Below are positions 58,923 to 61,178 of a DNA stretch of 64,000 bases, in pieces (within the stretch, counting starts at the first letter, position 1; the number at the start of each line of letters is the position of its first letter). The translations under genes and the position numbers were made by a program. The notes beneath the pieces are model-generated. The model worked only from the letters and a program-made list of their open reading frames with translations, did no database searches and was not told the DNA's origin. The stretch lies in IMG/VR virus record IMGVR_UViG_2690316121_000006; one strand, given 5' to 3'. The DNA comes from a virus (taxonomy: Duplodnaviria; Heunggongvirae; Uroviricota; Caudoviricetes).

Positions 58923-58951
58923 AAATCCCGCCAATCGGCGGGATTTTTTTT
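58923..58951. terminator. bidirectional intrinsic terminator
   Basis: AAATCCCGCC-AATC-GGCGGGATTT followed by TTTTTTT. Confidence 0.55.
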
Positions 58952-59738
58952 AATCGCTTTCCACTTCTTCCGTGGTGTTTTCTTGCAGTTCTGTTAATGC
59001 AGCACGACATAGGTTCCGGGCATTGGCTATAGCCACACTTTTGACTTCATCCGTCATCGTGCAGGTAATGTACTGATCGAGTTCTTCAGCGCGGATGATG
59101 CTTTTGCCAATCAGAAACTGTATTTGCCAGAGCAGATCGGCATCCATAATCAGAATTTCTGCCGGGCCTTCAGGGCCAGCCGGGAAGGAAACATAAGACT
59201 GTTTGCCCAGGCCGATAACTCGACAACTTGCTTCAAGAATTGCGCGCTTGAGGTCTGACTTTGTAACGGAAACAGGTTGGTTTTCACCAGTGATTATGCC
59301 GTTGATATGGAAGTGGAAGGGCATGTAGCTTGAAATTCGCTCTACTTTCCATACGCCAGCAAGCGATCCTTCATGCAGCACAATGGGGGTAACCGCGAGT
59401 TTCATCTCACCATATAACTGCTGGCAGATAGCTGGATTGCTGAATACATCCAAAGGTTCACACTCAAACAGCGGCGCAATCTGCATGAGGTCCATCATGG
59501 TCATACCAGGGGTACGAGCAGTAATGAATCTGCGCATGCCAGTATCCATTGTGCGCCAGATAGCTACACCATGCTTTTTGCTCACTTCTTCAGTAAAGCC
59601 AAGGTGGCACATGATGGTTTTTTCGATAGCCAGATCAGAGATCGAAACCTTTTCGCCAGGCACACCATCATTATTGATGGTCACTTCGACACTCTGACCA
59701 TTACGCAGGCGGTATTGAATTGCTTTAGTATTTTCCAC
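58950..59738 (-). CDS. hypothetical protein, downstream partner of the DUF2829-domain gene
   Basis: 262-aa ORF with no recognisable motif; 7-nt gap to upstream gene. Confidence 0.4.
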   Translation of the reverse strand: MENTKAIQYRLRNGQSVEVTINNDGVPGEKVSISDLAIEKTIMCHLGFTEEVSKKHGVAIWRTMDTGMRRFITARTPGMTMMDLMQIAPLFECEPLDVFSNPAICQQLYGEMKLAVTPIVLHEGSLAGVWKVERISSYMPFHFHINGIITGENQPVSVTKSDLKRAILEASCRVIGLGKQSYVSFPAGPEGPAEILIMDADLLWQIQFLIGKSIIRAEELDQYITCTMTDEVKSVAIANARNLCRAALTELQENTTEEVESD

Positions 59739-59744
59739 GTTAAA

Positions 59745-60542
59745 TCACTCCACTACAAACCAGTCACATGCCAGTAAGTCGCCTACAGAAGGAACCCACG
59801 GAACAACTACACCTTGTGCATTTTTTAAGGCGAAATAAGCACCATACGGAACGAGGTCACTGGGGAAATATCCCTTAATGGCTTCCATTCGTGCCGGGTA
59901 CTGCCCTTCAGGAACCAGCCAGCAGAATTGGTTTTCGCCGTTCCACCCGCGTCGAGCAACTTTCTTGCCATCCTTCAGCCACATCAGCGCGTCAGAAAAG
60001 TCGGCTGCTTCAAGGTCGATTTCTTCTTGTAGAGTAGCGATACCGCCAGCAGAAATAGTTACGTCCCTGGCTGTAATGAATGTCACCCCGTTGTGACCTT
60101 CAATGCTGAGCAATGCCCCATTTTCGAAGAAGTCGTTAGTCCGACTAAAGCCTTCTTCAAATGTTTTTTCTGGTGAATAGGACAGAGATCCGTCCTCATA
60201 AGCGACCAGATATCCGCCAATTTCTGGTCGGTGTTTTTGCAAAAACATTTTATCAACATGGACTTTTACCCCTTCTGGCTCAACGACTTCGATGTTGCAA
60301 AGAAGGACCACATCCATTAGGGCGATAATTTCGATATCTTTGATTTTTGAGGCACGAACTGTTTTATGGCTTTTGTATTTTGGAAGTGCCGTCAAAAGCT
60401 CTTTCGTTGTCATATTATTCATAGTCTTTCCTCTGCTTAAAACCTGGTGTATTGCGCCTTCAGGTGGGCCAGGAATGTTTTCCCACCAGCGAAAGCAATA
60501 TCTCGGGGTGTTCTTTTCGTGAAAAGCGCGTGCCATTGCCAA
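59745..60542 (-). CDS. two-domain protein with C-terminal DUF2829 (Tad2-like) module; probable start at MNNMTT near 60422
   Basis: C-terminal FSDALMWLKDGKKVARRGWNG ... PWVPSVGDLLACDWFVVE matches DUF2829 pattern; good RBS before internal Met. Confidence 0.45.
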   Translation of the reverse strand: MAMARAFHEKNTPRYCFRWWENIPGPPEGAIHQVLSRGKTMNNMTTKELLTALPKYKSHKTVRASKIKDIEIIALMDVVLLCNIEVVEPEGVKVHVDKMFLQKHRPEIGGYLVAYEDGSLSYSPEKTFEEGFSRTNDFFENGALLSIEGHNGVTFITARDVTISAGGIATLQEEIDLEAADFSDALMWLKDGKKVARRGWNGENQFCWLVPEGQYPARMEAIKGYFPSDLVPYGAYFALKNAQGVVVPWVPSVGDLLACDWFVVE

Positions 60543-60619
60543 CTTTGGCGTTTTTTAGCGAGTTCGTGCTTTTGTTGGCGTCTGGACCACCGCTTTTCTT
60601 TCAATCGTTTTTTACTCAT

Positions 60620-61108
60620 TCAAAACGGAATATCGTCGTCAAAGTCCATTGGAGGTTCGTTATTGGCGTTGCTCTGAGGTTTACCGCCACCACTGTATTG
60701 CTGGTGGTTTTGAGGTTGGTTTGATTGCCCCCAGCCATTTGAGGACTGTGAATCGTCACGGCGAGCGCCGATCATTTGCATGGTGCCGCCCTGGCTGACG
60801 ATAATTTCCGTCGTGTAACGTTCTACACCGGCGTCATCTGCCCACTTACGGGTTTTAAGTTTCCCTTCGATGTAGACCTGAGAACCTTTTCGTAAATACT
60901 CACTCGCAATTTCAGCAAGTTTTCCGAACAAAACGACTTTATGCCATTCTGTTTGCTCTTTCTGTTGGCCCGTTTGCTTGTCGCGCCATGATTCATTCGT
61001 TGCGATGCTGAGTCTTCCGACCGCGCCGCCATTTGGTATATACCTGATCTCCGGGTCTTGCCCTAGGGTACCAATCAGGATGACTTTGTTTACACCGCGT
61101 TGTGCCAC
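60620..61108 (-). CDS. ssb: single-stranded DNA-binding protein SSB
   Basis: 162 aa; OB-fold N-terminus [23 protein letters not shown]; Gly/Gln-rich linker; C-terminal acidic tail DDDIPF. Confidence 0.9.
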
Positions 61109-61126
61109 TTATCTTACCTAATAAAA

Positions 61127-61143
61127 TAAATTAATTAGAGCAA
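61127..61143. promoter_or_regulatory. C1-repressor operator-like site (1-2 mismatches) between divergent ssb and lyz
   Basis: AAATTAATTAGAGCAAT. Confidence 0.45.
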
Positions 61144-61178
61144 TAATGTATATCTTTGAAACGTAGCTAACAAGTGAT

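Follow-up and report, generated by a model that had tools for sequence, protein, structure and literature searches.

An OB-fold domain joined to a Tad2-like domain in a candidate immune-signal sponge of a P1-like phage

Introduction

What is a gene for a DUF2829 (Tad2-like) protein doing at the end of the ssb operon of a P1-like phage? The gene lies in a stretch of 64,000 nucleotides (nt) of Caudoviricetes DNA (IMG/VR record IMGVR_UViG_2690316121_000006), analysed as a whole and called the window below; all coordinates refer to it. The window belongs to a P1-like phage (Punavirus), and the DNA of the locus is 96–98% identical to P1, Salmonella phage SJ46 and Escherichia phage vB_EcoM-Ro157c2YLVW. 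The genes of the locus are all on the minus strand, in a predicted operon with the order ssb, a basic open reading frame (ORF) of 60 residues, the DUF2829 gene, which we call OB-Tad2 after its two domains, and isaA, of 262 residues; a convergent gene, hxr, lies beyond (Table 1).

An earlier note on this DNA had described two adjacent ORFs, attributed the first to DUF2829 by its motifs and proposed that the pair form a counter-defence module. Both ORFs are indeed present on the minus strand and the motifs, ALMWLKDGKKVARRGWNG and PWVPSVGDLLACDWF, lie in the first of them, OB-Tad2. We propose, with a probability of roughly 0.7, that the locus is accessory cargo ending the C1-controlled early ssb operon and that OB-Tad2 is a candidate sponge for immune signals. 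It is a probable anti-Thoeris-type sponge, situated in a region already known to vary among P1-like elements.

Results

C-terminal domain

Sequence comparison firmly places residues 137–225 of OB-Tad2 in the Tad2/DUF2829 family. The Pfam profile PF11195 ("Tad2-like") matches residues 141–224 over positions 2–73 of its 73 positions, with a score of 80.4 bits against a cut-off of 25 (E = 1.5e-22). The solved structures matched by the domain are MoTad2 (8V3E/9EIB, E = 1.4e-19), HgmTad2/AcrIIA7 (8KBI, 2e-10), SPO1 Tad2 (8SME, 6e-9) and SptTad2 (4e-8). The best of these, MoTad2 (ModTad2), comes from a Myroides odoratus prophage and is available as the apo protein (PDB 8V3E) and with His-ADPR (9EIB); it aligns with the window domain end to end, at 44% identity over 88 aligned residues with one single-residue gap. 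The two proteins have in common a short β2–β5 insertion, a WNG motif and a W-x-P-S-V-x-D motif. They differ in that MoTad2 is a stand-alone protein of 89 residues whereas the window protein adds an N-terminal extension of 135 residues, and in one pocket position, which is serine in MoTad2 (PSVSD) and glycine in the window protein (PSVGD).

The binding pocket was mapped from the residues of HgmTad2 that contact gcADPR (bioRxiv 2023.11.15.567273), those of MoTad2 being named only in figures. Seven of the eleven contacts are identical in the window protein (W21, N22, G23, V84, W87, S90 and D93 in HgmTad2 numbering) and two are conservatively changed (M76 to L and L88 to V); the other two are weighed in the Discussion. 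The pocket residues W160, N161, G162, W209, S212 and D215 of the window protein are conserved, and W160, W209 and D215 are invariant in an alignment of 37 full-length homologues. Among 20 close homologues the Tad2 core is the most conserved segment, with a variability of 0.29–0.45 bits. Profile similarity, homology to solved structures and retention of the pocket all agree, and the Tad2 identity proposed in the earlier note holds.

A cyclic-dinucleotide pocket of the HgmTad2 type is absent. HgmTad2 and SPO1 Tad2 (PDB 8KBI–8KBM, 8SME) share the DUF2829 fold family with the window protein, but HgmTad2 has a long insertion and a cyclic-dinucleotide pocket comprising R31, S47 and N85, and the window protein does not. 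At the equivalent positions R31 is valine and F70 is tyrosine, whilst S47 and N85 fall in gaps. The β2–β5 insertion is 17 residues shorter than that of HgmTad2, whereas dual sponges of the HgmTad2 type have a long one (35–41 residues).

The same insertion varies within the family. Close homologues from P1/D6-type elements carry at least three alternative β2–β5 insertions at residues 169–197 (about 59832–59918 of the window), namely EGQYPARMEAIKGYFPSDLVPYGAY, DKQGASRLTPIKHAANGELEINFDSPLAPYGAH and AGSVNLHGIHVPYGDH, and the core that flanks the swapped insertions is nearly invariant. The pattern suggests cassette-like swapping of the very part in which other Tad2 proteins have their second ligand site.

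MoTad2 sequesters His-ADPR, the signal of type II Thoeris, and also, through a second site, the Pycsar signals cUMP/cCMP; it leaves type I Thoeris uninhibited. As MoTad2 is the closest characterised relative, His-ADPR and cUMP/cCMP are our first guesses for the ligand of the window domain, His-ADPR and cUMP binding being established, of this pair, for MoTad2 only. Other Tad2 proteins bind 3'cADPR or N7-cADPR. An anti-CRISPR (AcrIIA7) reading of the domain was considered and is not favoured; the reported anti-Cas9 activity was not reproduced (bioRxiv 2023.11.15.567273).

N-terminal domain

The rest of the protein had been described as an unrecognised domain of about 130 residues. The length was close, at about 135 residues counted from the ATG at 60422, but the domain can be recognised: sequence profile and predicted structure identify it as a homologue of the OB-fold of Dec, the decoration protein of phage L. 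A profile built from 23 N-terminal segments and searched against the PDB with hmmsearch matched one solved protein, Dec (6E3C; E = 6.6e-7, Dec residues 14–122). An AlphaFold2 model of residues 1–134 has a pLDDT of about 90 over residues 10–97 and below 50 beyond. When this model was compared with the PDB by Foldseek, Dec was again the only significant match (6E3C; E = 3e-4, probability 1.0, 26% identity over 95 columns), followed by weak generic OB-folds. The domain has no match in Pfam or NCBIfam, and in PHROGs it matches only families of unknown function.

The conserved motif of the domain reads LPKYKxHKxVRAxKI ... KHxPxxGGYLVxYEDGxLSYSPxxxFExGY. Dec and the window protein share its GGYL...Y...F..Y core and a β-rich segment after the OB-fold; the C-terminus of Dec is a trimeric spike, whereas that of the window protein is the Tad2 domain. 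The segment that joins the two domains (residues 98–134, pLDDT below 50) aligns to the start of the Dec spike, as far as Dec residue 122, and in homologues is variable or replaced by helical linkers.

Dec binds capsids through its OB-fold and trimerises through a C-terminal β-helix spike that points away from the shell (PMC6449081). Its capsid-binding residues K30 and Y49 align with E31 and H55 of the window protein, which are variable positions, and the contact residues are not kept. E31 and H55 lie in or beside a hairpin (residues 29–46) that is the most variable segment among the 20 close homologues (1.66 bits). This variability fits a fast-evolving binding surface and an unconstrained loop equally well.

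Fusion partners of the OB family

The OB profile was searched against 1.84 billion representative proteins. The family comprises 5046 clusters (at 50% identity) at E ≤ 1e-3 and 2749 at E ≤ 1e-10; Dec, for which capsid binding is known, is a distant outlier among these more than 5000 clusters. The best 150 matches are mostly stand-alone proteins of 83–160 residues, with longer fusions a minority, and tandem OB domains occur in clusters P0150, P0172 and P0188. Seven giant proteins of 1781–4559 residues (P0145, P0146, P0147, P0152, P0165, P0237 and P0286) match the profile in 11–28 separate stretches each, and could be either repeats of the OB domain or spurious matches driven by sequence repeats.

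A Pfam scan of 62 longer members found Tad2 in 15, PF21825 in 13, PF13876 in six, the Acb2/Tad1 hairpin in two and RyR in one. PF21825 models the Sequestin family of sponges and PF13876 the Acb4 family (bioRxiv 2025.07.12.664507), so that all four main partners of the OB domain are sponges for immune signals. One cluster (P0153) has OB, Tad2 and Sequestin domains in a single chain. Weaker matches include phage fusions of the OB domain to MazG-like and RyR domains.

Genomic context was sampled for six stand-alone OB genes. Two lie in head or structural modules, one of them between scaffold-like and major capsid genes (contig L015) and another 5' of a tail-tube gene; the other four are among small early or accessory genes. 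One stand-alone OB gene follows directly 3' of a gene for an Acb2/Tad1 hairpin.

Fusion of sponges to one another has precedent. Tal et al. reported that sponge domains are often fused together, and it was fusion to Tad2 or Acb4 that revealed Sequestin (bioRxiv 2025.07.12.664507). Their survey queried only Pfam families, so that a domain without a Pfam model would have been invisible to it. The methods of a subsequent study by the same group exclude those sponge proteins that also carry "PF21825 or PDB 6E3C"; this filter implies that fusions of the OB domain to sponges had already been seen and were common. Our literature search found no paper that characterises such a fusion. The window protein resembles the Acb4–Tad2 protein of Pasteurella phage Pm86 and the Tad2–Sequestin and Sequestin–Acb4 fusions in that a sponge domain is joined to a second small domain: its C-terminal domain belongs to a sequestering family and its N-terminal domain to a family fused to four sponge families. 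That N-terminal domain also recurs with Sequestin, Acb4 and Acb2/Tad1. Unlike the partners in the published sponge–sponge fusions, it has no Pfam model.

One further fusion was observed in two contigs of phage-plasmid size, 77–89 kb (L005 and L006, 4001–4576), which encode a Tad2–Sequestin protein whose Tad2 domain is 85% identical to that of the window. The gene lies near genes for NinX, a RecA-dependent nuclease and a HigB/helix-turn-helix toxin–antitoxin pair.

Comparison with P1

Alignment of the locus to P1 (NC_005856) by blastn gave three blocks: the end of ddrB with hxr, the 262-residue gene, and ssb with its upstream region (98%). The second block identifies the 262-residue gene, hitherto anonymous, as P1 isaA by sequence: it corresponds to the 3' 785 nt of that gene (P1_gp017) at 96% nucleotide identity and at the same site adjoining ssb. 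The statement that it has no assignable function stands. IsaA falls in phrog_2326 (E = 9e-151), a family of unknown function, and its AlphaFold2 model is mediocre (pLDDT 67). Only 24 homologues were found, all from P1/D6-type elements of Escherichia, Klebsiella and Raoultella. In P1, CRISPR interference found isaA to be non-essential (PMC10695390).

The DUF2829 gene sits exactly between the ribosome-binding site and ATG of isaA and the body of that gene. A segment of 684 nt containing it (59735–60418) is replaced by 6 nt in P1, and the junctions are clean. In P1 the shared ribosome-binding site and ATG (AAGCAGAGAAAAGACTATG) run straight into the isaA codons MTAQNTKTIQY..., whereas in the window the same site and ATG start the DUF2829 gene. 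The second difference lies on the other side of isaA, where P1 has IS1 and isaB before hxr and the window has a 31-nt spacer with a hairpin. The earlier note had placed an IS1 element here in P1, correctly, and had supposed that P1 carries different content here; P1 has isaA, however, and lacks only the DUF2829 gene. The isaA–IS1–isaB segment has been published as variable among P1-like plasmids and as a hot spot for recombination and insertion, and one study notes an ORF that "interrupts isaA" (PMC6906374, PMC9603915).

The comparison also touches the annotation of P1. RefSeq gives P1 isaA 320 residues, whereas the ATG next to the ribosome-binding site gives 264 residues, as in clusters P0121–P0125 (L001, NC_005856 4283–4540, corresponding to 60380–60640 of the window). 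The RefSeq start is probably too far upstream. The N-terminal 56 codons of that model overlap, in another frame, the conserved 60-residue ORF after ssb.

Distribution in P1-like and D6-like elements

The complete arrangement is present in 110 of the 456 PLSDB plasmids that match the locus. Among the rows sampled, many align over some 60% of the query, with isaA and the ssb end present and the cassette missing; in other plasmids the DUF2829 gene lies elsewhere, beside dut. The gene had been thought undescribed for P1-like phages. This is not so: the RefSeq records of SJ46, Ro157c2YLVW, D6 and many plasmids label its product DUF2829, and an automated screen reported Tad2/AcrIIA7 hits in 56% of P1-like phage-plasmids and in 93% of D6-like ones (bioRxiv 2025.09.12.675607). 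The reading frame is intact in hundreds of records, with 453 member sequences in the near-identical cluster P0001 (225 residues, 97% identity, 100% coverage) and 197 in P0011.

In D6-like elements (L003, L007 and L010) OB-Tad2 occupies islands linked to cre: 3' of a cre-like recombinase gene stands dut or an orphan N6/N4 DNA methyltransferase gene, then OB-Tad2. An isaA-like gene (40–49% identity) follows OB-Tad2 directly in L007 and past a 159-residue ORF in L010. The cre-linked island resembles an anti-defence island, a counterpart to the one beside ssb in P1-like phages.

The first 14 residues of D6-like IsaA (MENTKAIQYRLRNG) are identical to those of IsaA in the window, whereas the P1 version begins MTAQNTK, and D6 shares the Tad2-coding part and the first isaA codons with the window at 96.5% nucleotide identity. 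This identity suggests that P1-like genomes acquired the cassette from a D6-like element, through recombination at homologous isaA sequence.

A two-gene module, as first proposed, is weakly supported. Adjacency of the two genes recurs in the D6-like elements L007 and L010, but Klebsiella phage SopranoGao has OB-Tad2 and no isaA, and isaA occurs without OB-Tad2 in P1 and many P1-like plasmids; obligate pairing is rejected. A dUTPase–Tad2 fusion of D6-like plasmids (P0056) was likewise rejected as a designed pairing with nucleotide enzymes, being a deletion product. Comparison of L003 (4001–4726) with L007 (3548–4734) shows that dut residues 1–143 run, across an AGG microhomology, into ...ITTQQEEIDLEAADF of the OB-Tad2 gene next door. 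This natural deletion lost the OB domain and kept the Tad2 domain.

Gene layout and expression context

The features of the locus are collected in Table 1. Counted from a TTG, the OB-Tad2 ORF spans 59745–60542 (265 residues). Translation most likely begins at the ATG at 60422, which gives a protein of 225 residues beginning MNNMTTKELL, because a Shine-Dalgarno sequence (GAGGAAAG) stands just upstream and the near-identical clusters are 225 residues long. The 60-residue ORF between ssb and OB-Tad2 differs from its P1 counterpart by both synonymous and non-synonymous changes; it has no family match and a single, faint match in PHROGs.

Table 1. Features of the OB-Tad2 locus in coordinates of the window
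Feature	Coordinates	Strand	Basis and remarks
hxr, 103 residues	58609..58920	+	Overlaps the end of ddrB; tail of acidic residues DGGDEDDDDDDFGDH
Hairpin AAATCCCGCC-AATC-GGCGGGATTT, then T-run	58923..58949		Perfect 10 bp (58923–58946), between convergent hxr and isaA; read from the sequence
isaA homologue, 262 residues, GTG start	58950..59738	-	Identity to P1 isaA; GGAG Shine-Dalgarno at 59748–59751
OB-Tad2 gene, 225 residues plus stop, two-domain candidate anti-defence protein	59745..60422	-	ORF, Pfam and PDB profile matches, homologue clusters
Tad2-like (DUF2829) domain, residues 137–225	59748..60014	-	PF11195, MoTad2 match, pocket residues
β-rich linker, poorly conserved, residues 98–134	60021..60131	-	Partly aligned to the start of the Dec trimeric spike
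Dec-like OB-fold domain, residues 10–97	60132..60395	-	PDB profile, AlphaFold2 model, Foldseek
Shine-Dalgarno sequence GAGGAAAG	60426..60433	-	3 nt 5' of the ATG at 60422; this site and ATG serve isaA itself in P1
Candidate ORF, 60 residues, very basic	60437..60619	-	Begins MSKKRLKEKRWSRRQQKHELAKKRQ; ATG overlaps the ssb stop (TGAATG); conserved in P1
ssb, 162 residues, first gene of the operon	60620..61108	-	ORF list; 97–98% DNA identity to P1 ssb
ssb promoter region with C1 operator Ossb (ATTGCTCTAATTAAATT, about 61128–61144)	61100..61170	-	Near-identity to annotated P1

The 111 nt 5' of ssb equal the P1 sequence in all but one base, and in P1 this stretch is annotated with the promoters P1ssb and P2ssb and the operator Ossb/Op21. 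The promoter assignment follows from this near-identity with annotated P1, since a consensus scan for promoters and terminators returned nothing useful. We infer that ssb, the small ORF, OB-Tad2 and isaA would form one early, C1-repressed transcript, because the genes are tightly spaced and no terminator precedes position 58946, where the first hairpin is found, 3' of isaA. That hairpin (58923–58946), which the scan left unreported although it apparently meets the scan's own criteria, is probably a terminator shared by hxr and isaA. The GTG of isaA lies 6 nt after the OB-Tad2 stop and its Shine-Dalgarno sequence is inside the last codons of OB-Tad2, so translation of isaA is probably coupled to that of the upstream gene. 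Base composition shows no anomaly across the cassette (GC content 0.44–0.49, against 0.45–0.52 in the flanks).

The convergent gene hxr has a single match, phrog_2292 (unknown function), and no match to a helix-turn-helix family. The label inherited from P1, "possible repressor, Xre homologue", looks weak on sequence grounds.

Discussion

We propose that OB-Tad2 acts as a sponge. Its Tad2 domain would form tetramers, by analogy with solved Tad2 proteins, and the pocket around W-N-G and W-x-x-S-x-D would bind an ADP-ribose-derived alarm nucleotide made by the TIR (Thoeris-type) sensors of the host. The signal would be kept from the host suicide effector and phage development or plasmid establishment would proceed. 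Because its family recurs in fusions with four unrelated sponge families, the OB domain would most likely add a second anti-defence activity or a targeting function. The predicted early timing and the position beside the dar genes fit a counter-defence role. Together with the Tad2 identity they favour the counter-defence part of the module first proposed, whereas the pairing with isaA is weak.

Several points weigh against this explanation. Two of the eleven HgmTad2 pocket positions differ in the window protein (A78 to N and T92 to G). About a quarter of the sponge homologues tested (19 of 84) inhibited none of seven systems, so that family membership guarantees neither activity nor the identity of the ligand. 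The N-terminal domain is bulky and, possibly prone to trimerise like Dec, might interfere with a Tad2 tetramer. IsaA has no sequence match in Pfam, NCBIfam or the PDB and no role can be assigned to it. Both the early co-transcription with ssb and the sponge activity of OB-Tad2 and its close homologues are read from sequence.

The alternatives differ mainly in what they ask of the OB domain. It could itself bind a second immune signal, in which case the protein would block two pathways in the manner of Acb4–Tad2 and Tad2–Sequestin; we regard this as possible but on the unlikely side. Its attraction is the fusion of the OB domain to four sponge families, the same "guilt by fusion" logic that found Sequestin. 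Stand-alone members are mostly of typical sponge size (83–160 residues), tandem copies hint at an oligomeric function, one stand-alone gene directly follows that for an Acb2/Tad1 hairpin, and conservation falls on basic (K/H/K/R) and aromatic (Y/F/Y) residues. OB-folds often bind nucleotides. Yet ligand, pocket and oligomer of the OB domain are predictions of this reading, no solved sponge is similar to it and its sole structural relative is the capsid-binding Dec; the family is also fused to MazG-like and RyR domains, which are not sponges, and two of the six sampled stand-alone genes lie in head or structural modules. Dec suggests another function, in which the OB domain would bind the capsid lattice as Dec does and display the Tad2 domain there, mopping up the signal made by capsid-sensing enzymes or masking the surface. 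The only characterised homologue binds capsids in this way with its spike outward, the linker after the OB-fold aligns with the start of that spike, some stand-alone homologues are in structural modules (L015 and the gene 5' of a tail-tube gene), and the hairpin aligned to the main capsid-contact site of Dec is the most variable, as expected of a binding interface. We nevertheless judge a capsid tether improbable. K30 and Y49 of Dec have become E31 and H55, the gene is in a predicted early C1-repressed operon and not among late genes, four of the six sampled stand-alone genes are among small early or accessory genes, and a trimeric tether of the Dec type would be mismatched in symmetry with a tetrameric Tad2 domain. 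P1 virions are reported to be without decoration proteins (PMC9024508), a report that is uninformative for OB-Tad2 because P1 lacks the gene.

It is also conceivable that the gene has no function, being a passenger brought by recombination into a hot spot and perhaps decaying, or that its N-terminal domain is a mere scaffold for solubility or oligomerisation. The published hot spot, the absence of the gene from P1 and many P1-like plasmids, and the existence of deletion derivatives (the dut–Tad2 hybrid P0056 and truncated ORFs) are what such a passenger would leave. We consider this very unlikely, as hundreds of records (P0001 and P0011) retain an unbroken ORF, homologues from 97% down to about 34% identity keep both domains, pocket residues are invariant and no segment is better conserved than the Tad2 core. 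A sponge in which the Tad2 domain sequesters a TIR-derived signal and the OB domain contributes a second activity or targeting remains our preferred explanation. A broader extension of it, that the OB domain is a new and widespread anti-defence domain, is tentative and we hold it with less than even confidence. The domain might then be a fifth sponge family, for a signal yet to be assigned, or it might bind capsids and so bring sponges to the very particle that sets off TIR and cyclase sensors, with Dec as an exapted or dual-purpose relative.

Part of this was known: Tad2 hits in P1- and D6-like phage-plasmids, the RefSeq naming of the gene as DUF2829 and the variability of the isaA–IS1–isaB region. 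The homology of the N-terminal domain to Dec and the fusion of its family to four sponge families, both drawn from profile and domain searches, are new. The literature we searched contains no description of the two-domain architecture in P1 or D6 elements, of the exact insertion at the isaA start or of the breadth and partners of the OB family.

Clinical E. coli, Shigella and Salmonella commonly carry P1- and D6-like phage-plasmids, and the host defences that these elements can evade affect where they and their resistance or toxin genes settle. The Tad2 part of the protein is an expected member of its family, whose nearest relative points to the signals of type II Thoeris and Pycsar. Should the OB domain prove to be an anti-defence domain, the P1-like protein would be an inhibitor with two functions. 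A signal-binding OB domain would represent a large new family of sponges and might give access to an immune messenger not yet known; a capsid-binding one would connect signal sequestration with a structure that many bacterial sensors recognise.

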